Of a DNA stretch of 64,000 bases, positions 24,749 through 61,492 are shown in pieces. Position 1 is the stretch's first letter. Every line of letters begins with the position of its first letter. Made by a program: the position numbers and the translations under genes. The DNA comes from an uncultured Candidatus Saccharibacteria bacterium. GTDB lineage: Bacteria; Patescibacteriota; Minisyncoccia; Phycocordibacterales; JACOZG01. Below the pieces are notes generated by a model. The model did not search any database and was not told the DNA's origin. It saw nothing but the letters and a program-made list of their open reading frames with translations. Where the stretch lies: NCBI GenBank assembly GCA_964651115.1, contig CAZYXJ010000001.1:42273-106272 (forward strand). The letters are read 5' to 3'.

Positions 24749-26320
24749 GTGAGTCTCATAAAAATTTCTAGAGTTCTAAAAGAGTACGGTCAACACACCG
24801 TTTTAAAAGACGTTTCTTTTGCGGTGGAGCGTGGCGATCGCTTGGCGCTGGTTGGGCATAACGGCAGTGGCAAAAGCACCTTGCTTAAATTATTGGCCGG
24901 ACAAGAAACGGAGGACTTCGGCTCAATTATTCGCGCCCAAGATTTGCGCCTCTCTTATTTGCCGCAAGATACGAGTTTATTGAGCGATCAGTTAGTCGCT
25001 GAATATTTGGCCGAAGTGGGAGACCGTCCACCACATCAAGTGGAAACCATTTTGGCGGGCTTTGGCCTGGACGTCAAAGTTTTGGATCGTTCGCTAAAAG
25101 AGTTAAGTAGCGGCCAAAAGACCAAGATTGCCCTGGCGCGCGTCTTGCTAGAAGAAGCCGATTTACTTTTGCTGGATGAGCCAACTAATAATCTCGACTT
25201 GCCCGCTCTGTTGTGGTTAGAAGAATTTTTGCTTCAGTCTCGCGCGGCCTACGTCGTGATCTCTCATGATCGCCAATTTTTAGATCGAGTCGCTGAAAAA
25301 ATTATTGAAGTTGATTGGCAAGATCATAGTTTGATTATTAACAAAGGTTCTTATAGCGACTATCGGGAACAGGAAGCTCGTCGTCGCGCTCATTTGAAAA
25401 GTGAGTACGAGACGCGTCAGGCTGAGGTCGAGCGGATCGCGGAGCGAGCCGCCAAACTCAAAGCCTTAGCTGAGGCTGGGCCGCGCTGGACCAGTACCGA
25501 CAACGACAAGCACGTGAAATTTTATCGTTCTCAACGGGTGGCTCGGACGGCCCGGACCGCCAAGACTCTCGAACGGCGGGCCTGGCGTCTAGATACCCTG
25601 GATGCCCCAATCGAGCGAGGACTTTTAGAACTGCCCCTCGCGAGCCACAAGCGCGGTGGCGCCTTTGATTTAGAGCTGATCGCCGCTACTACCGGCTATG
25701 CCAGCGGCTTTGAGCTAGGGCCGTGTGACCTGGACATCCGTTACGGGCATCGGGTGGGCATTATTGGTCTAAATGGTTCGGGCAAATCTACACTTTTAAA
25801 GTTGATTAAGGGCGAGGTGCCAGTCCTGGGCGGAGAGCGGAAGGTGGGCTCGGGCGTTAAGATTGGTGATCTGACCCAAGAGCACGAGAGTCTGCCGCGC
25901 GAACAATCCCTAGTAGATTTTTTACTCAATAAGACCTCGGCGGACCGCTCGCAGGTTTATGAAATCCTCACTCGATTTAGCTTTAATGCTGATCGAGCCA
26001 CCTCGCCGATAGGTACTCTTAGTCCCGGAGAACGCGCCCGGCTTATTTTGGCCTTGTTTACCATGATGGAAATTAACACTTTAATTCTGGACGAGCCAAC
26101 CAATCATTTGGATTTGGAAGCGTTGGAGGCACTGGAGGAGGCACTGGAAACCTTTACGGGTACCTTGATTGTCGTCTCGCATGATCGCTACTTTTTGGAG
26201 CGTTCTCGCCTCGAGCGCCTCTACCAAGTGACGGCCGGGACACTCGCGCCGATTGGTGATTATCAGGCCTACTTAGCCGCCGCCGAGACGCAGGCGAAAA
26301 AATTAATTCGCTTATTGTAA
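24749..26320 (+). CDS. ABC-F family ATPase (two tandem ABC domains, no TMD)
   Basis: Two Walker A motifs (GHNGSGKST, GLNGSGKST), two LSGG/LSPG signatures and an inter-domain linker. Confidence 0.85.
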   Translation: MSLIKISRVLKEYGQHTVLKDVSFAVERGDRLALVGHNGSGKSTLLKLLAGQETEDFGSIIRAQDLRLSYLPQDTSLLSDQLVAEYLAEVGDRPPHQVETILAGFGLDVKVLDRSLKELSSGQKTKIALARVLLEEADLLLLDEPTNNLDLPALLWLEEFLLQSRAAYVVISHDRQFLDRVAEKIIEVDWQDHSLIINKGSYSDYREQEARRRAHLKSEYETRQAEVERIAERAAKLKALAEAGPRWTSTDNDKHVKFYRSQRVARTARTAKTLERRAWRLDTLDAPIERGLLELPLASHKRGGAFDLELIAATTGYASGFELGPCDLDIRYGHRVGIIGLNGSGKSTLLKLIKGEVPVLGGERKVGSGVKIGDLTQEHESLPREQSLVDFLLNKTSADRSQVYEILTRFSFNADRATSPIGTLSPGERARLILALFTMMEINTLILDEPTNHLDLEALEALEEALETFTGTLIVVSHDRYFLERSRLERLYQVTAGTLAPIGDYQAYLAAAETQAKKLIRLL

Positions 26321-26323
26321 ATT

Positions 26324-27619
26324 TTGATGTTTGATTTTACCGAAAAAATTTATTGGGCGATCAAAGACCGTCATTCCCATCGCCAATTTGGCGGGGCGCC
26401 ACGATTGTGCGTGGTGAATTTGCCCCGTCCCTCGCCTCGCTGGGGGATTGAGGTCTATTCGCGGCTTGGCTGGTTGGCCGAAACCGATCAAGAGTTTGGC
26501 GCTCTGCATCTCCTCGAACATTATCTGGCTGGTAGTGTGCGCGAGGTGGTGACTCATCCCGCCCACACCAATGGCCACGTGGGCATGGATCGCATGGGTT
26601 TTGAGGCTGACTTCCATCGCGACCAAGCAGCCAGCTTGGTCGAAACCTATTTGGACGGCCTCTTTCGCCCCAAGTGGCACCGCCAAGATCTCTTGGCCTA
26701 CGAGCGCGACTCCATTCTTAACGAGATGAACGTCAAGACCCATGACTTAGAATATGCCATCTTTCGCGCTGTAACCAAACAACGTTTTGCGCCCAACTCG
26801 CGTTACGGTCGGGCCTCAGTGGAATCACTCGACTCGACCTTGGCTCTATCGCTCGACGATATCGTCAATACCTACGAACGCTGGCGCGAAAGTCCGCTGG
26901 TAGTTTTTTTGTGGGGCCATCAATTGCCAGCGGCGTTGGTTGATCGCGTTCGCCGCTATCTCGAAGCTTGTGAGCTTAAGCCCTGGCAAAAAGACACCTG
27001 GCCGTCGGTGGATTATTCCCCGAGGCACATCGAATTGCGCCCCGATCCTAGTATCCGCGGGGTCTACATTAGTCTCTCTTTTCCGGCGGGCACCTGCCAA
27101 GATCCCGATCGAGACCTCTTAGCTCAGCGACGCCTGGGGCAATTTATTACCAGCAATCATCCCAAATCGGGCTTTCGACGGTTGCGCGAGCAGGGGATCT
27201 ACTTTTTTCGTTACGAGGCCGCGCGCTTTGGCAGTGCTGGCTTTTGGATTTTTCATAGTTATTGTACGCGCGAGCAGTTGCCAAAAACGCTCGGCGCGAT
27301 TGCTGAGGTTTGGCGGGAGATTAAGAAAAATTCGGTACCGGAAGGATATCTTTTGGATCTAAAAAAAGAGTCGCACTTTGCCATTGAGCGCGAGTGGTAT
27401 CAGAACGATAGTCGATACGACTGGATCGTCTCGGACGTTTTAGAAAATGAGCCGATCAAAACGATCGCTCAAGAAAAGGCGGTGGTCAACTCGGTCACGA
27501 GCGAGGTAATCGCCACGGTGGCCAATCGCACCCTCGACTCAACCAAGCTCAATCTCACGCTTACCGGCGACGTCCAAGGACTAGATCAGCAAGCGATAAC
27601 CACGGCCCTAGAATTTTAG
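26324..27619 (+). CDS. M16 (pitrilysin/insulinase-like) zinc peptidase
   Basis: Inverted zinc motif HxxEH (ALHLLEHYLAG) and a downstream Glu-rich region. Confidence 0.7.
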   Translation: MMFDFTEKIYWAIKDRHSHRQFGGAPRLCVVNLPRPSPRWGIEVYSRLGWLAETDQEFGALHLLEHYLAGSVREVVTHPAHTNGHVGMDRMGFEADFHRDQAASLVETYLDGLFRPKWHRQDLLAYERDSILNEMNVKTHDLEYAIFRAVTKQRFAPNSRYGRASVESLDSTLALSLDDIVNTYERWRESPLVVFLWGHQLPAALVDRVRRYLEACELKPWQKDTWPSVDYSPRHIELRPDPSIRGVYISLSFPAGTCQDPDRDLLAQRRLGQFITSNHPKSGFRRLREQGIYFFRYEAARFGSAGFWIFHSYCTREQLPKTLGAIAEVWREIKKNSVPEGYLLDLKKESHFAIEREWYQNDSRYDWIVSDVLENEPIKTIAQEKAVVNSVTSEVIATVANRTLDSTKLNLTLTGDVQGLDQQAITTALEF

Positions 27620-27634
27620 TTACCTAATCTGTTT

Positions 27635-28111
27635 ATGTTTTATAAAAAAATTCTTACGTTCGTAAAAGAGGACCAGGCCGATCGAGCAATGATTCGGAAA
27701 AAATTGCCACCAAGCAAGAAGATGTTGTTGTGGTTAAAAAGACGAGATGAACAGCGATTGAAAGATATTTGTAAGCTTGGTGCTCAAAATTATCATAAAT
27801 TCTCAAAGAAAACCCTTTTCAATGTTGCTTTAATTATGACTCATGCTTTGCCACTAGAGCATCAGTTAGTTGCTGGAGTTATTGCCGATAGGAGCTATTC
27901 TTTAGGGTTTAAGCGGGCCGATAAACTAAGAAAAATAACAGCGGATAGAATATTGGTTTCAAAATATCAAAAACAAAAATATGGCACTCAGCAGCAATAT
28001 CTGAATGGTAAGTTTATTCCTTATCCGGTAAGTCATAAGCTGAAAGATCCGTTAATTGAATTAACCCCGGAAGAAAAAGAAGTTATTGTTGGAAAAGCGT
28101 TTTCTGTTTGA
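27635..28111 (+). CDS. hypothetical protein (low GC)
   Basis: 158 aa basic protein with no recognised family. This is the first gene of the low-GC block. Confidence 0.4.
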   Translation: MFYKKILTFVKEDQADRAMIRKKLPPSKKMLLWLKRRDEQRLKDICKLGAQNYHKFSKKTLFNVALIMTHALPLEHQLVAGVIADRSYSLGFKRADKLRKITADRILVSKYQKQKYGTQQQYLNGKFIPYPVSHKLKDPLIELTPEEKEVIVGKAFSV

Positions 28112-28113
28112 GG

Positions 28114-29442
28114 CTAGAGATACCCCCACTCGCGGAGTTTGTCCATGCCGCTTTTGATAAAACGATTGCCGATGTCGTTGCGGTAAAACATTTTAGGGAT
28201 GTACACTTTATTGGCCAAGCCATAAACTTTGTTTTGGGCCTGCTCGACTGTCTGACCCATACCCGTGATGTAAAGCACATAACCGCGATGATCGGAGATG
28301 TAATACTGGTTTTCTCCGGCGCGGAGAGCCATCTCTTCGAAGTGGAAGTGCCGCCACTCATCCTTTTTTAACTTGTCGTCAAAGTAGATATTCAAACCAT
28401 AGGGCGAGTTTTGGGGCAACTTCTTGTTGTGGGGGAAAGGGGGGACGGTGATCAAAATGACGATACCATAACCACGACGCCATTTGAGTTTATATGGTTC
28501 GCCTTTGGCCACGGCGTAAAGAAATTCCCCCCACGGCGACTGATGGATCTCGTCATGCAAATAAGTAATCGGTGAGCCAAAGCGAGGAGTCGCCTCAAGG
28601 GGGTAGGCACCCGTTTCGTTAACGATGCAATTGATATCGATATCGCCCCGGAAGCCAATCTCTTGTAAGTAGGGTTTGAGTTTAGCTAGGGTCTCTTGGA
28701 ATAATTTATTTTCTGCCTCGTTATCGTCATACCAAGCCAGGGTGCCCATCTCGCTAGTTGGGGGGCCAAGATCTCCCGGGAAGAACTTTTTGTGTTCTAC
28801 GTTCATCTCGATTGGACCAACCCAATCATTGCCGTTAAAGTAGCGGCCGACGCCAATTTCGACACCGTCGATACGCTCTTGGAGAGTAATCGCCCGCGCT
28901 TGGCTCTTGAGATTACGATTGTAGTTTTCTAAGACACTGGCCACATCACGACTATCGGCAAAATGAGAGACGTAGTTGAGACTTTTGGAAGCGTTGCCGT
29001 TCTGCTTGATTACCCACGCGCCACGATTATCTTTTAGGAATTGAATGGCGTCAAGAATATCTTTAAAGGTCTTGAGGGGGACCGTTTTGATTCCATATTT
29101 TGCAAAAATGGCCTGACCGTATTGACGATCAGACTCTAATTTATCCCCCAATTCACAACCCCCAAAAACTGTATAACCCTCTTTGCGCAAGTCGTCTTGG
29201 ACTTTTCCCGAGCCAATGTCGTCAAAAATAATTAGTCCATTCTTGCCGACCCAAAAGAGTTCCTGGCGCCAGTCTTGAGTCTTTTCGACCAAGCCAGAGA
29301 AGTTGGTTTGGGCCTCGGGGGGCAGATAGAGCCGGACACTGTGGCCCTCTTGCTTTAGACGCACCGCTAAGTGCGGGGCGATCATATTTTCGGACGATAC
29401 AAACAGGATATTCCTGGCAGTCATATGTTGTATTTCTAACAC
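28114..29442 (-). CDS. phosphoribosylamine--glycine ligase (PurD/GARS)-like ATP-grasp enzyme
   Basis: Collinear similarity to PurD: AWVIKQNGNASKS resembles IVIKADGLAAGKG, EATPRFGSP resembles EFNCRFGDPE, and the C-terminus GMGQTVEQAQNKVYGL...RNDIGNRFI resembles the PurD C-domain (ALGHTVAEAQKRAY...RKDIGWRAI). Confidence 0.65.
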   Translation of the reverse strand: MLEIQHMTARNILFVSSENMIAPHLAVRLKQEGHSVRLYLPPEAQTNFSGLVEKTQDWRQELFWVGKNGLIIFDDIGSGKVQDDLRKEGYTVFGGCELGDKLESDRQYGQAIFAKYGIKTVPLKTFKDILDAIQFLKDNRGAWVIKQNGNASKSLNYVSHFADSRDVASVLENYNRNLKSQARAITLQERIDGVEIGVGRYFNGNDWVGPIEMNVEHKKFFPGDLGPPTSEMGTLAWYDDNEAENKLFQETLAKLKPYLQEIGFRGDIDINCIVNETGAYPLEATPRFGSPITYLHDEIHQSPWGEFLYAVAKGEPYKLKWRRGYGIVILITVPPFPHNKKLPQNSPYGLNIYFDDKLKKDEWRHFHFEEMALRAGENQYYISDHRGYVLYITGMGQTVEQAQNKVYGLANKVYIPKMFYRNDIGNRFIKSGMDKLREWGYL

Positions 29443-29477
29443 ATAAACAGTATCACGTAAAGCCCCAGACTGTCAAA

Positions 29478-30398
29478 TTAGCCGTAGAAAGCTAGGCCTA
29501 TGCCGCCAAGAACAAGTAATAGGATGGCAATAAATTTTTTTACCAAATTTTTTCGATCTAAAGATTCATTAAAGTGGCGAGGAAGAAATTTTGTTAGCAA
29601 GGCGCCGATAACAAGAACGAATAGTGGCTGAAGAGAGTTAACAACATAGACAAGTGCCACCGGGGCTAGAAGTACAGCATAATTAAAAAGTAAATCTGCG
29701 CCGATCATAGAGCCTTCGGTGGCTGATCCAAATTTAATCATTTTGATTCCTGCGCTGCGATAGAGGGCGAAAAAATCTCGACGGTACGAACCAATAAAAA
29801 TTAAGAGCAGTAAACCGAGAAGCATGATGCCGGAGTATTCCCAAAATTGTGATTGCCAATAACCCGCATCCAGAGCAATTTTCTTAAAGATCACGCCAGA
29901 CAGAGCCGAAAAAAAAGAGGCTGTGCCCATAAGCAACAAGAGTTTACCCTTTAACTTAAAGGTGCCATTTTCAGTAGCCAAAGAAAGCAAAAAAGCTCCT
30001 AAAATAATTACCGCACACAGAATCATTTGAATCGCAGAAAGTTGTTCTCCTAGAACGACATAACCCAAAACATAGGAAAAAACTGGGATTAATTGATAAA
30101 GCGGAACAACCAATGAGGCCTCATACCTATGGAGAGCATTAAGATATAGCGCCAGGCTACTCATGCTGATAACCCCATTAATAACCAGCGTGATTTTAAA
30201 AGTCGAAGAAAGTAAAAAAACTCCCTGATCAAGAAAGAAAGAGATGGGAACCATGATTCCCGCAAAAAGTGCTGAAAAAATGACGATCCCGCCAATACCA
30301 CCATCTTCTTTTACGAAATGACTAAGAACGAACTTGTCGATGAAATTGGCCGCGGTATACAGCAAGGGCGCCCCCAGGGCCACTAGAAACCAAGACAT
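29478..30398 (-). CDS. EamA-like (DMT superfamily) transporter
   Basis: 306 aa with about 10 TM helices in two repeated halves. Low GC. Confidence 0.7.
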   Translation of the reverse strand: MSWFLVALGAPLLYTAANFIDKFVLSHFVKEDGGIGGIVIFSALFAGIMVPISFFLDQGVFLLSSTFKITLVINGVISMSSLALYLNALHRYEASLVVPLYQLIPVFSYVLGYVVLGEQLSAIQMILCAVIILGAFLLSLATENGTFKLKGKLLLLMGTASFFSALSGVIFKKIALDAGYWQSQFWEYSGIMLLGLLLLIFIGSYRRDFFALYRSAGIKMIKFGSATEGSMIGADLLFNYAVLLAPVALVYVVNSLQPLFVLVIGALLTKFLPRHFNESLDRKNLVKKFIAILLLVLGGIGLAFYG

Positions 30399-30589
30399 AA
30401 GGTGTAGTATAATTTAAACAATAAATCTAATCCACTAGCATTTATGACCCTTGCGTCCAAAATTTTAGTTGCCGTTCTTTTATATGCAATATTTTTTTCA
30501 ATTTTTGTTACCTTCCACCAGGGGGTAATTTTAAAAAAATATGATCTAATTAGCACTGAAGAGAATTAAACTTTAGCGACCAATGAACT

Positions 30590-31117
30590 CTAAATAACTT
30601 GTCTATTAATTTTTTCTTGTAAATACCACTGAAAATACCCTTTGTATCTTTTTTGCAATTCTTTGTTTTTCCAATCTTGGTCGGTGATGATATTTCTACA
30701 GTTCTTAGAGGCACACAAACAATTTAGAGAATACGAAACTTGTTCGCTCTCTGATCCAAGAGCCATTGCATAATCAAAAGTTACAGCTTCCCCAACTAAA
30801 ATTTCTCTCATGGCCACCAAAATAATCTGTCCATGAAAGCCAGCATTTGGGTCACAGGAATGATTGAAAAAACAAGCTGGTTCGATTTCTGATTCTTTTT
30901 TTATCCCCAAAACAAAATCATCACCAATCTGTAGGCCATAATCAGAAAGATTGGCTGGGCCTTCTTTTTCTTCTTTTATTGTCATCACGTATCCTCCAAA
31001 TATTGCTAAAACTTCGCCCTTCATTATTTTTTTTGCGGCAAATACGCCCCTCCCTGCCCCAGAAGTTGTTTCTTGCAACTTTAGTTTTTCGTTAACCCAA
31101 GAGAAAGAATTGTGCAT
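30590..31117 (-). CDS. SET-domain protein (putative protein-lysine methyltransferase)
   Basis: GRGVFAAKKI (GxG), FFNHSCDPN (NHSCxPN), EAVTFDY (ELxFDY) and post-SET CLCASKNC. Low GC, about 38%. Confidence 0.8.
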   Translation of the reverse strand: MHNSFSWVNEKLKLQETTSGAGRGVFAAKKIMKGEVLAIFGGYVMTIKEEKEGPANLSDYGLQIGDDFVLGIKKESEIEPACFFNHSCDPNAGFHGQIILVAMREILVGEAVTFDYAMALGSESEQVSYSLNCLCASKNCRNIITDQDWKNKELQKRYKGYFQWYLQEKINRQVI

Positions 31118-31160
31118 TTAAATTTGTTTATAAGTAAAAACTCACGCTATAATCATAAGT

Positions 31161-32825
31161 ATGCTAAATAACCTCATTACTTGTCCAGATTCTGTGCCAA
31201 ACTTCCTGGGAATTGTTGATACCCAACTAGCCCCTCCATTGCTATTTTATTCATATCTACCAATTATTGCCATTTGCTTATTTATGGGGGGATACGTTCT
31301 TGCGGCAAGCAAGTTTTCCCTAATTTCTAAAGCTTTCTTGGCCATCAGCATATTTTTTTCATTATGGTCAGCAAACGCACTTTTCCAGTGGATCGGGGTT
31401 CACGCCGACATAGTTCACTTTTCTTGGCAAATAATCATATTGTTTGAAGCCCTAATGTTTATTTCCGTGTTTTATTTTTCTTACGTTTTTTTACACAACA
31501 AGACACCATCGATATGGTGGCAAGTTGCACTGTCGGTTATTTTGTTCCCAATTATCTTACTTTTACCGTCCCGTTTGAATATCACCGCTTTTGATTTAAC
31601 TAATTGCGCCGGACTAGTTGGCTCTTTATGGCGATACGAATATGTAATGGAATTTTTCATTGCAATTTTGATTTTGTATTTTACCTTTAAGAAATGGCAA
31701 ATTAAAAAGAACATGAAAAGTAAAGAGGTTCTTTTGGGAGTTTCGTCCACTTTTTTTCTGGTCTTATTTTCGATTACAAACATAATTGGCGACGCCACTG
31801 GTTACTATCAAGTAACACTGGCGGGATCTATAGGTTTTGCAGTTTTCTTGGGAGCAGTTGTTTTCCTCATCGTCCGCTATAAGGCCTTCAATATTAAGAT
31901 CATTGGAACACAGGCCCTGGTTGTAACTTTGTGGGTTTTGACTGGATCATTGCTTCTGGTGGCCAAATCGGAAGTCACCCGAATCATTGTGGCATTAACA
32001 GAGATCGTCTCAATTATCTTCGGTCTCATTTTGATTAAAAGTGTTAAGCGAGAAGTCGCGCAGCGGGAAAAAATCGAAAAATTGGCCAGTGCCCTGGCGG
32101 AGACAAACGACGAGCTAAACGTGGCTAACGAAAAACTTAAAGAACTAGACAAACAGAAAACCGAATTCGTTTCGGTGGCGTCGCATCAGTTGCGTGCTCC
32201 GACTACGGCCATCAAAGGTTACTCCTCAATGCTTCTCGAAGGTTCTTATGGTCCGCTGGAAGAGAAGGCCAAGCAAGCTGTCGACGTCATTTTCCAATCA
32301 GCCCAAAAACTTAATTTCGTGATCGAAGATTTTCTCAACATTACCCGCATTGAGTTGGGCAAAATGAAGTATGAGATTTCTGAAGTTGATTTAAAGAAAA
32401 TGGTTGATCAGGTATTTAAGGAGCTCGACCCCGTGGCCAAGCGCAAGGGTCTCGAATTTAGCTTTAGTGCTGGACGAGGCTCGTTTAAGGTGATGGCCGA
32501 TCCCAGCAAGCTTTCCCAAGTCATTATGAATATTGTGGATAACTCAATTAAATATACTCCCAGTGGTTCAATTAAGGCTCGCCTTGAGGTCAAGGGAGGC
32601 AAACGTCTCTTTAGTATTACCGACACCGGTGTCGGCATGAGCGAAGAGACTCGGGGGCGCCTATTCCAAAAGTTTACTCGTGCCTACAACGCCAGCGCCT
32701 CTAACGGCACCGGTACTGGCTTAGGACTCTTCGTCGCCAAACAAATGATCGAGGCCCAAGGCGGACGTCTGTGGGTTGAGTCTGCCGGCGAAGGGAAGGG
32801 GAGCACCTTCTTTGTGGAGTTGTAG
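31161..32825 (+). CDS. sensor histidine kinase with N-terminal multi-TM sensor domain (orphan)
   Basis: About 7-8 TM helices, then HisKA H-box FVSVASHQLRAPTTAIKGY and HATPase_c G-boxes (DTGVGM, GTGLGLFVAK). No response regulator is adjacent. A TATAAT lies about 8 nt before the ATG. Confidence 0.85.
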   Translation: MLNNLITCPDSVPNFLGIVDTQLAPPLLFYSYLPIIAICLFMGGYVLAASKFSLISKAFLAISIFFSLWSANALFQWIGVHADIVHFSWQIIILFEALMFISVFYFSYVFLHNKTPSIWWQVALSVILFPIILLLPSRLNITAFDLTNCAGLVGSLWRYEYVMEFFIAILILYFTFKKWQIKKNMKSKEVLLGVSSTFFLVLFSITNIIGDATGYYQVTLAGSIGFAVFLGAVVFLIVRYKAFNIKIIGTQALVVTLWVLTGSLLLVAKSEVTRIIVALTEIVSIIFGLILIKSVKREVAQREKIEKLASALAETNDELNVANEKLKELDKQKTEFVSVASHQLRAPTTAIKGYSSMLLEGSYGPLEEKAKQAVDVIFQSAQKLNFVIEDFLNITRIELGKMKYEISEVDLKKMVDQVFKELDPVAKRKGLEFSFSAGRGSFKVMADPSKLSQVIMNIVDNSIKYTPSGSIKARLEVKGGKRLFSITDTGVGMSEETRGRLFQKFTRAYNASASNGTGTGLGLFVAKQMIEAQGGRLWVESAGEGKGSTFFVEL

Positions 32826-32921
32826 CTTAAGCGAGCTATAGTATACTTCTAAGTAGACCCAACCATAAGTTCTCGTGCGAGAGCGGGGTGGGACGATCTT
32901 TACCAAAATAGGAGATGGGCC

Positions 32922-34037
32922 ATGTGGTTAACCGGTTGTTTGGTTGCCGCCTCAGCTCTGGCGGTTGGCCAGACCGAGTACGAAACTTTTTACCCCTTAA
33001 GCCAACAGCGACCGACTCTGCAGCACGTCGCGCGTCCCGTCGGCCAACAAACAAGAGGACGATACCTTTTTTCTGATCCCGAACGACTTACCGCCGGGCA
33101 AGTTGCGGGGATCCAATTCTCCACTCTTATTTATTTTTCCCCGGAGGGACTGCCCAAATCACCCGTCCGCGTGCGCCTGTGGCTTTACGAAGAACCGGTC
33201 GCCCCGAGCATCGCTCACGGGCAGATCCAAGTCGCGCGCGTCACCAGTTCTTGGGAAGCCAAAAAAGTTACTGGCCGTTTAATGGGCCAAGCCAAATCTT
33301 CACGTCGTCACGCCTGGAAGTTCATTGATCTGACCGAGACTTATTTGGCGTGGCGCTCGGGGCTGTGGACCGAGCAGAATTATGGTCTAGCCATTTGCCC
33401 GACGGCTAAGTCAACCGACCCAGGCCAGATGAACTCTTTTGCGAGCTGGGAACATCCGGTAGAATCGGTTAGGCCTTTTCTGGCAATCCAAACGGCCGAT
33501 ACTGGCTGGTACCATTTTCCTTTGCGGGGAGGTTATTTGCCCGAGATGATTACTGGTTACAACTTTGGCGAACCGTGGTTGCCAGAGAGCCAGCGAACCA
33601 TCTCGCCAGCCAATTTTCCTCTCTTGCATACAGGCATTGATTTGCGAGCAGAAGTCGGCGATCCGGTCTGTGCGATTGCCTCAGGGATGGTGAGGCTCTC
33701 AACGGCTGATGAGAAGTGGGGTGGATACATCGTGGTAGAGCATCATCACGGCGACACTCCTTACACCGCCACTTACACTCACGTCCTACCTGGTGGACTG
33801 TGGGTTAGTCAGCTCTTTTGGGTTCAGGCCGGAGACGTTCTGGGGACTATTGCGCCCGGTAACGCCAATTTTTCGCCCCACCTGCACTTCCAGATCAGAT
33901 TGGGCGAGTATGACCCGACTCGATCATTGCTCGGCAGGCTACCAGAAGTTTCCGCCACCACCACCGCCTCACCAACCGTGCCCGAGCCAGCCTTTCCCGA
34001 AAATTTTTATGACCCACGGGTGATGCCTTGGGAATAA
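32922..34037 (+). CDS. secreted M23 (LytM-type) metallopeptidase
   Basis: Signal peptide, HTGIDLRAEVGDPV (HxxxD), and HHHGDTPYTATYTHV...SPHLHFQI (HxH). Confidence 0.8.
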   Translation: MWLTGCLVAASALAVGQTEYETFYPLSQQRPTLQHVARPVGQQTRGRYLFSDPERLTAGQVAGIQFSTLIYFSPEGLPKSPVRVRLWLYEEPVAPSIAHGQIQVARVTSSWEAKKVTGRLMGQAKSSRRHAWKFIDLTETYLAWRSGLWTEQNYGLAICPTAKSTDPGQMNSFASWEHPVESVRPFLAIQTADTGWYHFPLRGGYLPEMITGYNFGEPWLPESQRTISPANFPLLHTGIDLRAEVGDPVCAIASGMVRLSTADEKWGGYIVVEHHHGDTPYTATYTHVLPGGLWVSQLFWVQAGDVLGTIAPGNANFSPHLHFQIRLGEYDPTRSLLGRLPEVSATTTASPTVPEPAFPENFYDPRVMPWE

Positions 34038-34044
34038 AAATATA

Positions 34045-34080
34045 AGCGCCAGTACCACCTTAAGTGGTACTGGCGCTCTT
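34045..34080. terminator. bidirectional hairpin terminator between convergent genes
   Basis: Perfect 14 bp stem AGCGCCAGTACCAC/GTGGTACTGGCGCT with a 5 nt loop. U-rich flank on the minus strand, weaker on the plus strand. Confidence 0.55.
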
Positions 34081-35792: not shown

Positions 35793-37625
35793 ATGAGAGA
35801 ACGAATTCGTAAAATCAGAAGTTCGTCTTGGGCCTTGCTTAAAAATTGTTGGCGTTCGTTGGGTTACGCCTATCAATTTTCGCCCCGAGCCATCATCCTC
35901 ATGCTCGTTCTGGGCTCCCTGATTCCAGCCCTGACCTTCGCTCAAAATAAATATTTTGGGCGCGTGATTGACGGACTGGTTTCTTCCGTCGCGGCTCGCG
36001 AGCTTAATGCGCTGTGGCAACTGGTAGGCATCTATGCCCTCCTACTGATGATTAGCCCGATCTTGCGGGCGATTCGCCTCGCGGTGGAGAAACGCTACTA
36101 TCTCAAGCTCCAAGAGGGCATGGAAATTTTGTTGCTCCGGCGCCGAAGCGAGACCGATATCGCCACGCTGGAAGACAAAAATTACCAAGACCTCCTTCAG
36201 CGAGCGCTCCAGCGCGGCCACTGGCCCATCAGTTCGATTGTCGACCACCTACTCATCGCCTGGCAGAGCCTGATGGCCGTAGCGATCGGCTCGCTCGTCG
36301 CCGTCTGGTTTGACTGGCGGATCTTTGTGATTGTGATTACCGCTTCACTTCCCAAATTTGTTGCCGACATCAGGCACGGCCAAGACGTGTGGAGCATTCA
36401 CGCTCACGCCAGCCCTGATCAGCGACGCTTTGGCGACTTGCGTTTCCACATTGGCAATCGCATCTCTCTGATTGAGACCAAGCTGTATCAAAGCAGTAAT
36501 TGGATCATCAACTGGATGGGAAAAATTTTGGGCAAGTTTACGGACGACCAAATCTCGGCCGAACAGCGTCGCCTAAAATGGGTCGTGATGGCAGAGGTGC
36601 TTTCCACCGCCGGCTTCGTGCTCGCCATTCTCTTGATTGTTCGTGAGGTAATGGCGGGCAACATCCAGATCGGCGCGATGACCTTCGTGGTTGCTTCGCT
36701 GTCTCAGCTCGATAGTTCCATTTCTGGTCTATTGATTAGCATTGCCAAGCAGTACGAAGCTAACCAATATGCTAACGATATCTATCGGGTAATGGATTGG
36801 CCGCCCGCGATTGCGCACGCCAAGAAACCCAAAAAACTTGAGCTTGATGGGCCACCCGAAATCGTTTTCGAAAACGTCTCCTTTCATTACCCCCACGATC
36901 CCAAACTGATTCTTGACGGTCTTAACCTCACAATCAAAGCCGGAGAAAAATTGGGGATCGTCGGCATCAACGGTGCCGGTAAAACCACGCTCGTTAAGCT
37001 CTTGTGTCGGATCTATGATCCAACCAGTGGGCGCATTCTCGTCAATGGTCTCGACCTGCGCCAAGTAGAACTGGAAGAATGGCATTCGGTTTTAGCCGTT
37101 TTGTTCCAGGACTACACGTCCTTCGATTTCCAGACCGACCAAGCGATTGCCATGGGGCGAGTCGAGCAGGAAATTGTTCCTGAGCAAGTCCGAGCCGCGG
37201 CCGAAACTAGTGATGCCGATTCCTTTATTCGTCATTGGAAAAACCAATACGAAGAAATGTTGGGTGTGGAATTCGGCGGTCAGGAGCTCTCACGCGGCCA
37301 GCGCCAGAGATTGGCCATTGCGCGAGCGGCTTATCGTCAGGGACGCGTCCTCGTCCTCGACGAACCAACGGCCTCCGTCGACGCCGATTCGGAGATGAAA
37401 ATCTTTGAACGGTTAGAGTCCTGGAATGGGGCGACAATGATCCTCATTTCTCATCGCTTCAACACTCTGCGCCGCGCCAGTCGGATCATGTTGATCGAGG
37501 GCGGCAAGGTGGCGGAGATCGGCTCGCACGAAGAGCTGATGGCCCTCGGTGGACGCTATGCCGAAATGTTTACGCGGCAAGTGGAGAGCTACGTCGAGAC
37601 CCCGACCGAAAGCACGGTCAGTTAA
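35793..37625 (+). CDS. ABC exporter, fused permease-ATPase (MsbA/type I exporter-like)
   Basis: Six-TM domain plus NBD with Walker A GINGAGKTT, signature LSRGQRQR and Walker B LVLDEPT. Confidence 0.85.
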   Translation: MRERIRKIRSSSWALLKNCWRSLGYAYQFSPRAIILMLVLGSLIPALTFAQNKYFGRVIDGLVSSVAARELNALWQLVGIYALLLMISPILRAIRLAVEKRYYLKLQEGMEILLLRRRSETDIATLEDKNYQDLLQRALQRGHWPISSIVDHLLIAWQSLMAVAIGSLVAVWFDWRIFVIVITASLPKFVADIRHGQDVWSIHAHASPDQRRFGDLRFHIGNRISLIETKLYQSSNWIINWMGKILGKFTDDQISAEQRRLKWVVMAEVLSTAGFVLAILLIVREVMAGNIQIGAMTFVVASLSQLDSSISGLLISIAKQYEANQYANDIYRVMDWPPAIAHAKKPKKLELDGPPEIVFENVSFHYPHDPKLILDGLNLTIKAGEKLGIVGINGAGKTTLVKLLCRIYDPTSGRILVNGLDLRQVELEEWHSVLAVLFQDYTSFDFQTDQAIAMGRVEQEIVPEQVRAAAETSDADSFIRHWKNQYEEMLGVEFGGQELSRGQRQRLAIARAAYRQGRVLVLDEPTASVDADSEMKIFERLESWNGATMILISHRFNTLRRASRIMLIEGGKVAEIGSHEELMALGGRYAEMFTRQVESYVETPTESTVS

Positions 37626-37660: not shown

Positions 37661-37728
37661 CTTATTCACAATTATAAAAATATGTGGTATAAGAAAAAGG
37701 GACATTCAAACTGAAAAGGAGGTCAGTG

Positions 37729-38310
37729 ATGCAACGGATTCTTTTGGCGGCACTAGCCCTGGCTAGTGCCGGATGCTTTTCACCTCGAGGTACCGTCACC
37801 GTCGGAGCTAGTGTCAGGCAAATTAGGGGCAATTACAACGGCTTCCGCAGCCGCGCCACCATTCCCGTCGGCACTGTCCGCTTGGCTCAACCCATGGGAA
37901 AGAAGCTGGAAATCTGGCACGAGTGGCAGGGCAATCAGGGCCGAGTACCCGCCGATCATCTCGTGGCCCGAGGAGAGGGTGAGGGTTGGCTGTGGGCATC
38001 GGCCACTGGGATCGCATTGTATCCGGCCGAAACACGCCTCTTGGGCTTAACAATGGGCGGAGAGTTTTTTGAGGCGCGATACCGGATGACGGGACGGCTC
38101 GGACCCCTTCGTTCGCAAGAGCGAGATCATTTCTCGGGCGTAGGATTGGTCCTCGGCTTAAGAAGCGAGCTTCCTCTCGATCGGAATAAGCGCTTTGGTC
38201 TAGTCATTGAGGGCGGTTACCGCTTTACCGACACCTGGACCACCAAAGCCCGGATCGACGGCGATGGCTGGTATGGCACCATTGGCCTGGCTATCCAGTT
38301 GGGCCCTTAA
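37729..38310 (+). CDS. lipoprotein with beta-rich C-terminal domain
   Basis: Signal peptide plus lipobox LASAGC with alternating beta-like segments ending ...WYGTIGLAIQLGP. A TTCACA-N17-TATAAG promoter lies at about 37665-37693 and the RBS AAAGGAGGT is upstream. Confidence 0.55.
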   Translation: MQRILLAALALASAGCFSPRGTVTVGASVRQIRGNYNGFRSRATIPVGTVRLAQPMGKKLEIWHEWQGNQGRVPADHLVARGEGEGWLWASATGIALYPAETRLLGLTMGGEFFEARYRMTGRLGPLRSQERDHFSGVGLVLGLRSELPLDRNKRFGLVIEGGYRFTDTWTTKARIDGDGWYGTIGLAIQLGP

Positions 38311-38318
38311 GCATTTCA

Positions 38319-38366
38319 CCCCCCCCCCCTGATCAACACCGAGTGTTGATCAGGGGTTTTCTTTTG
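38319..38366 (+). terminator. terminator hairpin formed by dispersed palindromic element (copy 1) with C11 tract
   Basis: C11 (38319-38329), then TGATCAACAC-CGA-GTGTTGATCA, then GGGG and TTTTCTTTTG. Together these give a 14 bp stem ending in a T-run. An inverted copy occurs at about 59951-59995. Confidence 0.7.
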
Positions 38367-38405: not shown

Positions 38406-39800
38406 ATGAAAAATAGAACTAATATTAAAGACCTTAGTCAAAAAGTGGGGGAGGAGGTGGTAATTGCCGGCTGGGTGGATGTCCGCCGCGACCAGGGCAA
38501 AATGATCTTCTTCGACTTCCGCGATAAAACCGGTAAGGTGCAAGGCGTGATTCTTCCGGGCGCCAAAGAGGCGCACGCCGTGGGCGAAAAGCTCCGCCCC
38601 GAGTGGGTGGTCGAAGTAACGGGTAAGGTCAACGCTCGACCCGAGAAAAACATCCAAGCCGACAAACTAAACGGCGGGATTGAACTAGAAATTTTGGGAC
38701 TTAAAATTTTGAACGAAGCTACCACGCCGCCCATCCCACTCGGCGATGACGGGTACGAAATTGGTGAGGAGAACCGACTCAAGTATCGCTACTTAGACTT
38801 ACGCCGCGAGCGACTGCAAAAAAATCTTCGCCTACGCCACGAAGTAATCCGCCTGATCCGCAATCATTTAAGTGACCAAGGATTTGCGGAGGTCGAAACA
38901 CCGATTTTAACCAAATCAACGCCCGAAGGTGCTCGGGACTATGTTGTCCCTTCGCGGGTTTATCCCGGCAAATTCTACGCCCTGCCCCAGTCGCCCCAGC
39001 AATACAAACAATTGCTCATGGCCGCCGGTCTAGAGAACTATTTCCAAATTGCTCGCTGTTTCCGCGACGAGGACACTCGCGGTGATCGTCAGCCAGAATT
39101 TACTCAGTTAGATATGGAGTTGTCTTTTGTGGATCGCGAAGAGGTGATGGAACTTAACGAAGAGCTTTTGATTAAGATTGTCCAGACCCTCACGCCCGAG
39201 AAAAAAATTCAAACCATTCCCTTCCCGCGTCTAACCTACGCCGAAGCGATGGAAAAGTATGGCACTGACCGACCTGACTTGCGCGAAAATAAGGATGATC
39301 CAAACCTACTCGCTTTTTGCTGGGTAATCGATTTCCCCTTCTTTGAAAAAACCGAGGAAGGTGGCTGGACTTTTACTCACAACCCCTTCTCTCGGGCCAC
39401 CGCCGAATGGGAGAGCGCCCTCATGGAGAAGCGCGACCTCGAAAAGATTTTAACGACTCAGTATGACGTCGCCCTCAATGGCTTCGAAATTGGCGGCGGC
39501 TCGATTCGTAATCATCGGCCCGAGGCGCTCAAAAAAGTTTTTGAAATAATGGGCTTTAGCGAAGACAGAATTGTTAAAAACTTCGGCCACATGCTAGAAG
39601 CCTTGGGATCGGGGGCGCCACCACATGGCGGCATTGCCTGGGGTCTCGACCGCTTTATCTCTCTCTTGGCTGGCGAACCAAATATTCGAGAAGTAATTGC
39701 GTTCCCCAAAACCGGCGAGGGTCAAGACTTGATGATGAACGCCCCTTCAGACATCGAAGCTAAACAATTAAATGAACTCCGAATCAAAGTTTCAAGTTAA
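38406..39800 (+). CDS. aspS: aspartyl-tRNA synthetase (short, no GAD insertion)
   Basis: OB-fold N-domain and class II motifs. TKSTPEGARDYVVPSRV...FYALPQSPQQYKQLLM and QIARCFRDEDTRGDRQPEFTQLD are diagnostic for AspRS. Start set at the internal ATG at 38406. Confidence 0.92.
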   Translation: MKNRTNIKDLSQKVGEEVVIAGWVDVRRDQGKMIFFDFRDKTGKVQGVILPGAKEAHAVGEKLRPEWVVEVTGKVNARPEKNIQADKLNGGIELEILGLKILNEATTPPIPLGDDGYEIGEENRLKYRYLDLRRERLQKNLRLRHEVIRLIRNHLSDQGFAEVETPILTKSTPEGARDYVVPSRVYPGKFYALPQSPQQYKQLLMAAGLENYFQIARCFRDEDTRGDRQPEFTQLDMELSFVDREEVMELNEELLIKIVQTLTPEKKIQTIPFPRLTYAEAMEKYGTDRPDLRENKDDPNLLAFCWVIDFPFFEKTEEGGWTFTHNPFSRATAEWESALMEKRDLEKILTTQYDVALNGFEIGGGSIRNHRPEALKKVFEIMGFSEDRIVKNFGHMLEALGSGAPPHGGIAWGLDRFISLLAGEPNIREVIAFPKTGEGQDLMMNAPSDIEAKQLNELRIKVSS

Positions 39801-59237: not shown

Positions 59238-59277
59238 GGCCCTATCGTCCCTGCCTGCGCAGGCAGGTAATGGCTAG
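59238..59277 (+). other. tRNA-Glu 5' fragment copy interrupted by a perfect 18 bp palindrome
   Basis: GGCCCTATCGTC, then CCTGCCTGCGCAGGCAGG, then TAATGGCTAG. The two flanks are identical to nt 1-12 and 13-22 of the downstream tRNA, with the palindrome inserted between them. Confidence 0.45.
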
Positions 59278-59323: not shown

Positions 59324-59398
59324 GGCCCTATCGTCTAATGGCTAGGACATCACCCTCTCACGGTGGTAATCGGGGTTCGACTCCCCGTAGGGTCACCA
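59324..59398 (+). tRNA. tRNA-Glu (anticodon CUC), CCA encoded
   Basis: Manual cloverleaf: acceptor GGCCCTA/TAGGGTC, D-arm GTCT..GGAC, anticodon stem TCACC/GGTGG with loop CTCTCAC, T-arm CGGGG-TTCGACT-CCCCG, discriminator A and CCA. Confidence 0.7.
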
Positions 59399-59438
59399 AG
59401 TCGTGCTGAGTCTGTATGCACGAGAAGCGTCGAAAAAT

Positions 59439-59945
59439 ATGGAACAAATTCTCAAGTTAAATCCAAGCAATATCACCGATGAAGCGTCTGCCCGCCTAAA
59501 AACAAGGTTCGCTTCTAGGGGTGTTGTTTTTGACGGGGATAAAAATGTAGCTCTTCTGCCAGTAACGGCTCATAACTATTACAAACTTCCTGGCGGCGTG
59601 ATAGAAGATGGTGAGGATAAGGTGGAAGCTTTTCGCCGAGAATGTTTGGAGGAAATCGGTACGGATGTGGATGTAATCCAGGAACTCGGTTCAGTGGTGG
59701 AATATCGGGCAGAATTTTCTCTGGTTCAAACATCCTACTGCTATGTCGGCAAAATAAAAGGTGAAAAACATAAAGCTACATTTACTCAACACGAGCTAGA
59801 TAGTGGTTTTCGAGATGCAATTTGGCTACCACTGGAGAAAGCTATTGAGCTCATGGAAAGTCAGGCCGATAATCATGAGGGCAAATATGTTGTTGAGAGA
59901 GATACTTTCTTACTGAAAAAAGTTGGGGCCTTAAAAACTATCTAG
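59439..59945 (+). CDS. NUDIX hydrolase
   Basis: Nudix box GGVIEDGEDKVEAFRRECLEEIG (Gx5Ex7REUxEExGU). Start probably the ATG at 59439 (MEQILK). The ORF track opens at the GTG at 59403. Confidence 0.72.
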   Translation: MEQILKLNPSNITDEASARLKTRFASRGVVFDGDKNVALLPVTAHNYYKLPGGVIEDGEDKVEAFRRECLEEIGTDVDVIQELGSVVEYRAEFSLVQTSYCYVGKIKGEKHKATFTQHELDSGFRDAIWLPLEKAIELMESQADNHEGKYVVERDTFLLKKVGALKTI

Positions 59946-59950
59946 CCAAA

Positions 59951-59995
59951 AACCCCCTGATCAACACTCGGTGTTGATCAGGGGGGGGGGGTGAC
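59951..59995 (-). repeat. dispersed palindromic element copy 2 (inverted) with G11 tract
   Basis: CCCCCTGATCAACAC-TCG-GTGTTGATCAGGGGG followed by G-run 59981-59991. It is the reverse complement of copy 1 (38319-38366), including the 11-nt homopolymer. Confidence 0.65.
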
Positions 59996-60065
59996 AGGGG
60001 TTCTTAAAAAAAATTAGGGGGCGCTCGAGAAGCATAATTAATGGCTTTTCTGCTATCATACTATT

Positions 60066-60608
60066 ATGAATAGCTCAGTCATCGTTCTAAACGGTCCAAT
60101 GTGTGCAGGAAAAAGCACGATCACAAAGCTACTGATGCAGAATAATAATGTTTTTCGTGGTTCTTATGATGCAGTTAAGTGGCTTATAAGTAACTATTCT
60201 GCCGACAATGAAAATCATAGAAGAATTGCAAAAGAAGTAATTTTCAGTGCAATAACTACTGCTATTGAATCTGGTTTATCTATTGTTATAGATGGCGGTT
60301 TTGCAGATTTTAGAAACAGATACAAAGAACTTGCTCAAAAGTTTAATTTTGAGTATATAAGTCTAAATATTGAGGCGCCTATCAAAGTTTTAGAAAAAAG
60401 ATTCTTGGAACGAGTTAATTCCGCTAACCAAGTAAATAGTAAGACTATCAGTGTAACAACGCTAGAAGGTTTTTATTCTCGATATCAATGGTATTTGAGT
60501 ACCAACAAAGATTTTGATGGAATTACCTTTGATTCGAGTAAATTAACAGCAGAAGAGATTGTTACCGAAATTATAAAATTAACCAAAGTCCGCCACATGG
60601 CGGGCTAG
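60066..60608 (+). CDS. P-loop kinase, chloramphenicol phosphotransferase (CPT)/zeta-toxin-like
   Basis: VIVLNGPMCAGKSTI resembles the CPT N-terminus IILNGGSSAGKS. About 180 aa, similar in size to CPT. Very low GC, about 35%. Confidence 0.6.
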   Translation: MNSSVIVLNGPMCAGKSTITKLLMQNNNVFRGSYDAVKWLISNYSADNENHRRIAKEVIFSAITTAIESGLSIVIDGGFADFRNRYKELAQKFNFEYISLNIEAPIKVLEKRFLERVNSANQVNSKTISVTTLEGFYSRYQWYLSTNKDFDGITFDSSKLTAEEIVTEIIKLTKVRHMAG

Positions 60609-60648: not shown

Positions 60649-60667
60649 CGACTCCCCGTAGGGTCAC
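60649..60667 (+). repeat. direct repeat of tRNA-Glu 3' end (attR-like)
   Basis: CGACTCCCCGTAGGGTCAC is identical to tRNA positions 59376-59394. A second GTAGGGTC motif lies at 60609-60616. Confidence 0.6.
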
Positions 60668-60829
60668 AAAGTCCTTGAGCTTGACAAATACTTAAAATAT
60701 AACATACTTATTAGGATTCCTTAGCTTGTTGCTAGGGAAAATTAACAAACGTCTCTGGGGGTCCGCCCCCTCGTCCGGTCCGCCGGAGACAAAGAGACCA
60801 ACGCGCCTCCGTGGTGCAAGGAGCTTGAG

Positions 60830-61437: not shown

Positions 61438-61492
61438 CACCCCTGAAAAAAGCACTCGCTTTTTTCAGGGGTGCTTTTTTGTTTTATTTTTT
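61438..61492. terminator. strong hairpin terminator between convergent genes
   Basis: CACCCCTGAAAAAA-GCACTCGC-TTTTTTCAGGGGTG (14 bp stem) followed by CTTTTTTGTTTTATTTTTT. Confidence 0.8.

Follow-up and report, generated by a model that had tools for sequence, protein, structure and literature searches.

A 45-nucleotide hairpin module with the traits of an intrinsic terminator is present in two inverted copies in a Patescibacteria genome

The 64,000-nucleotide (nt) stretch of contig CAZYXJ010000001.1 analysed here, referred to as the window, carries twice and in opposite orientations a 45-nt palindromic unit with a long run of C's on one side. The first copy lies between a lipoprotein-like gene and aspS, the gene for aspartate–tRNA ligase, while the second copy is found close to the 3′ end of a tRNA-Glu gene. 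The unit is probably an intrinsic-terminator module which is native to this Patescibacteria genome and has recently been duplicated once. The two copies of the repeat unit, as defined by repeat search and alignment, are the following.

38316–38360, + strand: copy 1, TCAC-C11-TGATCAACAC-CGA-GTGTTGATCA-GGGG-TTTT
59950–59994, − strand: copy 2, reverse complement of copy 1, between the NUDIX and the kinase gene

In copy 1, the C11 run (38319–38329) is followed by the core TGATCAACAC/CGA/GTGTTGATCA (38330–38352), by GGGG (38353–38356) and then by TTTTCTTTTG. Copy 2, which on the + strand reads CCCCC-TGATCAACAC-TCG-GTGTTGATCA-G11 from 59953 to 59991, is the exact reverse complement. The repeat search returned inverted arms of 45 nt which are 98% complementary and 21,589 nt apart, the sole repeat of at least 30 nt in the window, and upon pairwise alignment the copies share 41 of 41 consecutive bases, a block which begins with TCAC, closes with GGGG and has unrelated flanks. 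When up to three mismatches are permitted, the 23-nt core occurs exactly twice (0.01 occurrences expected). The tracts of the two copies are likewise the only C/G runs of 8 or more, and by arithmetic from base composition approximately 0.03 runs of at least 11 are expected in a window of this size. The paired 45-nt feature is far beyond chance and, as the identity reaches the asymmetric TCAC-C11 side, the copies arose by copying and not by convergence. A further extension of the repeat to the TTAAG found upstream of both copies was rejected, as in copy 1 this motif contains the conserved stop codon of the preceding gene. The succession of C11, arms, GGGG and T-run that recurs inverted, which had been described in the initial annotation of this DNA, is confirmed by these comparisons, with an identity of 98% over 45 nt and copy 2 at 59950–59994.

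The features at and around copy 1 are listed below.

37726–38310, + strand: upstream gene, lipoprotein-like protein of 193/194 amino acids (aa), signal peptide plus Cys, no Pfam family
38319–38329, + strand: C11 homopolymer, last four C's paired with GGGG, length uncertain (at least 12–13 in Logan contigs)
38326–38356, + strand: predicted terminator hairpin, perfect stem of 14 base pairs (bp), 3-nt loop CGA (terminator scan; folding)
38357–38366, + strand: T-rich tail TTTTCTTTTG, U-tract of the predicted terminator (sequence; terminator scan)
38406–39800, + strand: aspS, aspartate–tRNA ligase (AspRS) of 464 aa, 100% identical to P0001, with PF01336 and PF00152

The RNA of copy 1 would pair four C's and the 10-nt first arm with the second arm and four G's, across the loop CGA, to form a 14-bp hairpin which is followed at once by UUUUCUUUU. 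The terminator scan of the + strand reports 14 pairs in the stem, of which 8 are G-C, a loop of 3 nt and TTTTCTTTTG as tail, and folding gave −25.5 kcal/mol (z = −6.7). The stem is directly followed by the U-rich TTTTCTTTT on the + strand, which also carries the upstream gene, and it starts 15 nt past the TAA stop codon (38308–38310) of the lipoprotein-like gene. The sequence traits of intrinsic terminators that were tested, i.e. a guanine–cytosine (GC)-rich stem with a short loop of 3–8 nt, a U-tract and a conserved site just after a stop codon, are present in copy 1. By all sequence criteria copy 1 is predicted to be a functional Rho-independent terminator, which would end transcription of the lipoprotein-like gene 15 nt after its stop codon and 40 nt before the start of aspS. 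The 14-bp stem terminator after the lipoprotein gene that the initial annotation had proposed is thus borne out by scan and fold, and the downstream gene order, aspS and then scpA, scpB and mraY, had been read correctly. The AspRS is 71–74% identical to proteins named Candidatus Vogelbacteria, Paceibacterota and Patescibacteria.

Two related loci, L017 and L018, the AspRS of which are 87% and 84% identical to that of the window, respectively, retain the order of a lipoprotein-like gene followed by aspS. Both have a different GC-rich hairpin with six to seven T's right after the orthologous lipoprotein-like gene, namely GCGCTGGGGA..TCCCCAGCGC-TTTTTTT in L017 and GCGCCCGAGGAC..GTCCCGGGCGC-TTTTTT in L018, and outside this pattern of hairpin and T-run the intergenic sequences of the window and the two relatives do not align. 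Unrelated hairpins at the same site in two relatives point to a conserved terminator slot with fast turnover of its sequence. As the relatives would also terminate strongly before aspS, this gene presumably has its own promoter. Control of aspS by read-through is unlikely, and the dependence of aspS on read-through that had been suggested is countered by the equally strong terminators which the relatives carry at the same place.

Around the otherwise syntenic core of the three loci small indels of whole genes are observed. An ABC transporter gene (610 aa, 35793–37625) between the tRNA-synt_1b and the lipoprotein-like gene is found in the window and in L018 and is absent from L017. In L018, two extra genes are seen, one of 131 aa on the − strand that separates the lipoprotein-like gene from aspS and one of 204 aa located after aspS.

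Two other terminator-like sites at gene ends of the window have perfect stems of 16 bp, loops of 3–4 nt and T-runs.

34044–34078: terminator-like site at a gene end
61438–61473: terminator-like site between a convergent 198-aa open reading frame (ORF) and murF

As these sites share the build of a perfect stem with a short loop, the style of the copy 1 hairpin appears native to the genome. The hairpin at 61438–61473, located between convergent genes, may act in both directions.

The C11/G11 run may prolong, on one side only, the G/C clamp which closes the stem at its base, and would be surplus to pairing and not act as a switch. The C11 faces four G's in copy 1 and five in copy 2, and only four to five C's can pair. 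When the RNA of copy 1 was refolded with 0–16 C, the same 14-bp hairpin was predicted, with energies from −26.5 to −27.8 kcal/mol for 4–16 C and a weakening only with fewer than 4 C, while the distance between stem and U-tract is set by the G side and is independent of tract length. Any four of the eleven C's can close the stem; slippage by a few bases is therefore predicted to change neither the hairpin nor its distance to the U-tract. The tract is situated outside any ORF and not between promoter hexamers, and a promoter which uses the tract as its spacer was rejected, as acceptable hexamers are found on neither strand. Phase variation of terminator strength, as brought forward in the initial annotation, does not agree with a predicted energy that is flat for tracts of 4 C or more. 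The proposed phase-variable read-through would, to judge from these folds, be without a mechanistic basis in the sequence, and a literature search for phase-variable terminators with homopolymeric tracts found no relevant precedent.

An independent view of copy 1 is provided by the Logan assembly of run SRR14271375. Over 3.7, 4.6 and 2.4 kilobases (kb), three Logan contigs show 100% identity with the window, which indicates that they derive from the same strain. For two of these contigs the copy 1 tract is the exact point of breakage, and the other contig ends are located in ordinary sequence; one contig starts with C13-TGATCAAC, and another (L007) ends with TCAC-C12-GCGGG. In the same strain the tract length is hence 11 in the window versus at least 12–13 in the Logan assembly, and the length of 11 given in the initial annotation is not secure in view of contigs with C12 and at least C13. 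The disagreement may reflect real heterogeneity, or it may be due to sequencing trouble at a long homopolymer beside a strong hairpin. The end of L007 (4591–4607) does not continue after TCAC-C12-GCGGG into TGATCA and, given k-mer filtering, is a recurrent variant with at least two occurrences. Two origins come into question for this end, a systematic error of sequencing past homopolymer and hairpin and a minor structural variant.

The differing lengths bear on two further explanations. In the first, the tract length, or even the whole duplicated unit, would be an artefact of assembly or sequencing. The variation of the tract between assemblies and the breakage of contigs at this site agree with such an artefact, and a shared repeat that was collapsed, or a limit of the basecaller, could be the reason why both loci have a length of 11. 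However, the independent SRR14271375 assembly reproduces the copy 1 unit together with both unique flanks, copy 1 sits at the terminator site of the relatives and is followed by a proper T-run, and both junctions are biologically coherent, so that doubt is confined to the exact tract length and does not extend to the element, for which an artefactual origin is very improbable.

In the second, the tract would be a phase-variable contingency locus, where slippage of the C/G run alters expression either via the terminator or via a two-tetrad quadruplex on the G strand which needs at least 11 G's. C/G runs of 11 or more are in the length range known to slip in simple-sequence contingency loci, and the run of at least 11 considered here falls within this slip-prone range. 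Assemblies of the same strain differ (11, C12, at least C13), and both Logan contigs that reach the tract break at it. With energies for G-quadruplexes included, folding moreover predicts that the RNA of the G strand turns into a two-tetrad quadruplex from a tract length of precisely 11 upwards. This fold is a speculative lead, as the prediction depends on generous two-tetrad parameters and on an uncertain tract length. On the other hand, a hairpin of constant energy and geometry from four C's onwards and a tract that is neither in an ORF nor between promoter hexamers offer slippage little to act on, the equal tract length at both copies is unlike what is expected of independent hypermutable tracts, and a homopolymer beside a strong hairpin is a classic error site, at which the GCGGG end of L007 looks technical. 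Taken together, a contingency locus is considered quite improbable.

Copy 2 would be the same DNA pasted in inverted orientation into a mosaic accessory islet of low GC content at the 3′ end of tRNA-Glu. The components of this region are the following.

59324–59398, + strand: tRNA-Glu(CTC), left border of the islet
59378–59402, + strand: left copy of a 25-nt direct repeat, formed by the tRNA-Glu 3′ end
59439–59945, + strand: NUDIX hydrolase gene, GC 0.43
59953–59985, − strand: copy 2 hairpin, 15-bp stem, T-run (TTTTT) on the − strand only (terminator scan; folding)
59981–59991, + strand: G11 homopolymer (C11 on the − strand)
60066–60608, + strand: P-loop kinase gene, AAA_18/AAA_33, GC 0.34
60649–60673, + strand: right copy of the direct repeat, fragment of the tRNA-Glu 3′ end, 24/25 identical, right border of the islet

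For copy 2, the terminator scan found a stem of 15 pairs with TTTTTGGCTA as its tail, read on the − strand, and folding gave −31 kcal/mol (z = −6.1). Directly after the hairpin the + strand reads GGGGGGTGACAGGGG / GGGGGGTGACAGG / GGGGGGUGACAGGGG, which contains no U-tract; both flanking genes are encoded on this strand, which lacks the T-run. On the mRNA of the NUDIX and kinase genes copy 2 would consequently form a hairpin without a U-tract, with a complete terminator predicted on the − strand only.

The islet measures 1.27 kb and has a GC content of 0.34–0.43 versus approximately 0.52 for the window. This piece of foreign composition is bounded by the 24/25 direct repeat of the tRNA-Glu 3′ end and contains the NUDIX and kinase genes only, with no integrase among the islet ORFs by Pfam. 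As far as can be read from the DNA, such borders are those expected of an element integrated at a tRNA gene, but an integrase is lacking. The ‘tRNA island’ of the initial annotation turns out to be a single tRNA-Glu(CTC) with this islet and not a cluster of tRNA genes. Homologues of the kinase which are 76–86% identical are encoded by other Paceibacteria, and in the related loci L019 and L020 the kinase homologue directly follows tRNA-Glu, with the NUDIX gene and the element absent. At the nucleotide level, homology of the window to these two loci extends over the tRNA and then sets in again from position 60014 onwards, which marks 59398–60013, comprising the NUDIX gene and copy 2, as an extra segment in this genome; copy 2 sits at its right-hand joint. 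This segment may have been inserted here or lost elsewhere. Copy 2 may have arisen as a by-product when the NUDIX and kinase segments were joined by rearrangement, and would at most block antisense transcription. The region after tRNA-Glu looks like a small variable hotspot in Paceibacteria, and no relatives of the kinase and the NUDIX protein were found in IMG/VR.

Upstream of the tRNA gene, at a distance of 85 nt, a 12-nt copy of the tRNA-Glu 5′ end (GGCCCTATCGTC) is followed by the palindrome CCTGCCTGCGCAGGCAGG (59239–59267), in which the Logan contig L008 ends exactly. This segment may be the remnant of a tRNA gene.

The unrelated sites at which the two copies reside raise the question of mobility. 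The unit could be a small non-autonomous mobile palindrome which carries a terminator, similar to repetitive extragenic palindromic (REP) sequences and REPINs, to miniature inverted-repeat transposable elements (MITEs) or to TRIT, with a larger family throughout the genome and a transposase encoded elsewhere. An identical unit of 41–45 nt at two unrelated intergenic sites in opposite orientations, which is besides the only repeat of at least 30 nt in the window, agrees with this scenario, as does the orientation of copy 2, ‘useless’ for its neighbours as would be expected of an insertion blind to function. Terminator sequences at the orthologous site turn over quickly, two copies per 64 kb are not a low density, and dispersed terminator motifs with conserved sequence are known in the form of TRIT (Gardner et al., 2011; PMC3152330).

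Yet only two copies are present in the window even with three mismatches, and single arms are not enriched, with six matches at one mismatch versus 2.5 expected and a maximum of seven upon shuffling. Neither copy is flanked by a target-site duplication, and there are no terminal repeats besides the hairpin itself. By Pfam, the 15 window ORFs scanned, which include all those of low GC content, encode no RAYT (Y1-transposase), DDE transposase, other transposase, integrase or recombinase domain. With respect to MITEs, neither copy has a duplicated flank and the hairpin is the only inverted repeat of a unit which, with 45 nt, is shorter than the approximately 50–500 bp typical of MITEs; with respect to REP families, the many copies and the 5′ GTAG-type tetranucleotide required of them are not seen here, the palindrome is perfect and flanked by TCAC-C11, and the copies are 21.6 kb apart.

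Searches beyond the window pointed in the same direction. The exact core TGATCAACACNNNGTGTTGATCA was searched in 185,579 species-representative genomes, among which the source genome may not be included, in JGI metagenomes and in IMG/VR. A total of 13 matches was obtained (5 in genomes, 8 in metagenomes and none in viruses), all in unrelated contexts and none with a C/G tract. All 13 were rejected for lack of the tract; the five in genomes include a Lacticaseibacillus 16S-23S spacer, a Magnetococcales gene and Poribacteria. Of a 61-nt region, blastn against the PLSDB plasmids and the INPHARED phages returned matches of approximately 20 nt only (E = 5). Rfam at gathering thresholds gave the tRNA only and, at E ≤ 10, generic hairpin noise of the miRNA-precursor type. 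The count of the core that the initial annotation had proposed thus gave exactly two occurrences in the window, and no related copies were found in the public genome, metagenome, viral, plasmid and phage collections.

A DNA uptake sequence was rejected as well, since outside the four arms that make up the two copies no exact TGATCAACAC is present and the single arm is not enriched. With two copies in 64 kb and neither target-site duplication nor transposase seen, the mobile REP/MITE-like element of the initial annotation is not demonstrated, and a mobile family is regarded as rather unlikely. A bolder combination, a species-specific miniature mobile element that carries a terminator along with a truly hypermutable tract (11 to at least 13) and a G-quadruplex threshold at 11 or more G's, is improbable.

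A function of the palindrome as a protein-binding site was also considered, either as operator of a dimeric regulator or as a site of recombination or inversion, in which case the inverted copies would permit inversion of the 21.6 kb between them. The unit is a perfect 10-3-10 palindrome upstream of aspS and of the kinase gene, and its two 45-nt copies have the inverted geometry which inversion needs. The identity of the copies nevertheless runs into the asymmetric flanks, as expected of copying and not of convergence of sites. L017 and L018 show the gene order around copy 1 to be ancestral, and from 38 to 60 kb the GC skew does not differ in sign from that of the flanks, which gives no indication of a fixed inversion. 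The ORFs scanned nearby encode no recombinase, and the segment consists of housekeeping genes. A binding or inversion site is accordingly judged highly unlikely. A transposon or an invertible segment bounded by the copies was rejected on the basis of the synteny with L017 and L018, the GC skew and the housekeeping content of the 21.6 kb. A role in GATC avoidance or as a restriction site was likewise rejected, with 383 GATC observed versus 250 expected, and the likeness of the arms to a DnaA box (7/9) and to parS or LexA boxes was judged to be chance.

The interpretation of the unit as a resident terminator module duplicated once is preferred, and several points weigh against it. It names no mechanism by which an inverted copy was placed 21.6 kb away, and at a uniform density the two copies in 64 kb would correspond to some tens in the whole genome. 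Moreover, neutrality alone does not explain the persistence of a tract of 11 (or 13 and more) that is equal in both copies; neither the rest of the window nor approximately 33 kb of related loci contains other long G/C runs.

If the once-duplicated resident terminator holds, the unit is a small example of terminator turnover, with three unrelated hairpins in one slot across three related genomes, and of a resident hairpin copied into a tRNA-linked accessory islet. To our knowledge, repeats and mobile elements have rarely been described in the Candidate Phyla Radiation (CPR). Many copies in the complete genome would reveal a mobile terminator family in an ultra-small CPR genome, and real length switching of the C/G tract in vivo would, if true, raise the importance of the element. 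Should the unit be both mobile and hypermutable, streamlined and repeat-poor genomes would gain the ‘pasting’ of terminators together with a contingency tract. On the practical side, the finding is a warning, as the tract length of 11 in one assembly is contradicted by at least 13 in another assembly of the same strain.

Apart from the element, the cumulative GC skew of the window peaks with a change of sign at approximately 28–29 kb. The peak coincides with a patch of low GC content (0.35–0.43) at 27.6–32.8 kb which holds an unassigned ORF of 158 aa and encodes a GARS-like ATP-grasp protein, an EamA transporter, a SET-domain protein and a histidine kinase. The SET-domain protein (175 aa; PF00856, E = 2e-13) is encoded at 30590–31117 on the − strand. 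The skew peak and the patch (window 26000–33000) could represent the region of a replication terminus or origin or, alternatively, an acquired block.

In comparison with known systems, copy 1 resembles canonical intrinsic terminators in its GC-clamped perfect hairpin with a short loop and in the U-rich tail that follows the hairpin at once, a few bases past a stop codon. The unit differs from them by the second, inverted 45-nt copy without a U-tract on the sense strand and by the one-sided C11, 7 bases of which are unpaired. With contingency loci the element shares a G/C homopolymer of at least 11, a length prone to slipped-strand events. The known contingency tracts of Neisseria, Haemophilus, Campylobacter and the Bordetella fim promoters are placed in an ORF or between promoter elements, whereas here the tract is 5′ of a terminator stem and its length is predicted to be irrelevant.

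REPs are imperfect palindromes with a 5′ GTAG-type tetranucleotide which occur in tens to hundreds of copies, often as close inverted doublets, in genomes with a RAYT gene, and palindromes of this type often double as terminators or as stabilizers of mRNA. A short intergenic palindrome of approximately 35–45 nt in either orientation is common to the REP/REPIN systems with their RAYTs, which are IS200/IS605-like Y1 transposases, and to the unit described here. However, imperfection of the palindrome, the tetranucleotide, high copy number, doublets and a RAYT were not found in the window with its 15 scanned ORFs.

Uptake sequences are strongly over-represented as single words genome-wide. Inverted pairs of the DNA uptake sequence (DUS) of Neisseria and of the uptake signal sequence (USS) of Pasteurellaceae form terminators (PMC2397512). 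As in these pairs, a 10-nt word in inverted arrangement makes the terminator stem of the present unit, but the exact 10-mer is confined to the two copies. TRIT, restricted to Mycobacterium, is present in 147 copies in M. tuberculosis and overlaps the ends of coding sequences at approximately position −8 (Gardner et al., 2011; PMC3152330). The unit of this Patescibacteria genome has two known copies, which lie downstream of stop codons, and bears no sequence similarity to TRIT, with which it nevertheless shares the principle of a terminator-like palindrome whose sequence, and not its structure alone, recurs at different gene ends.

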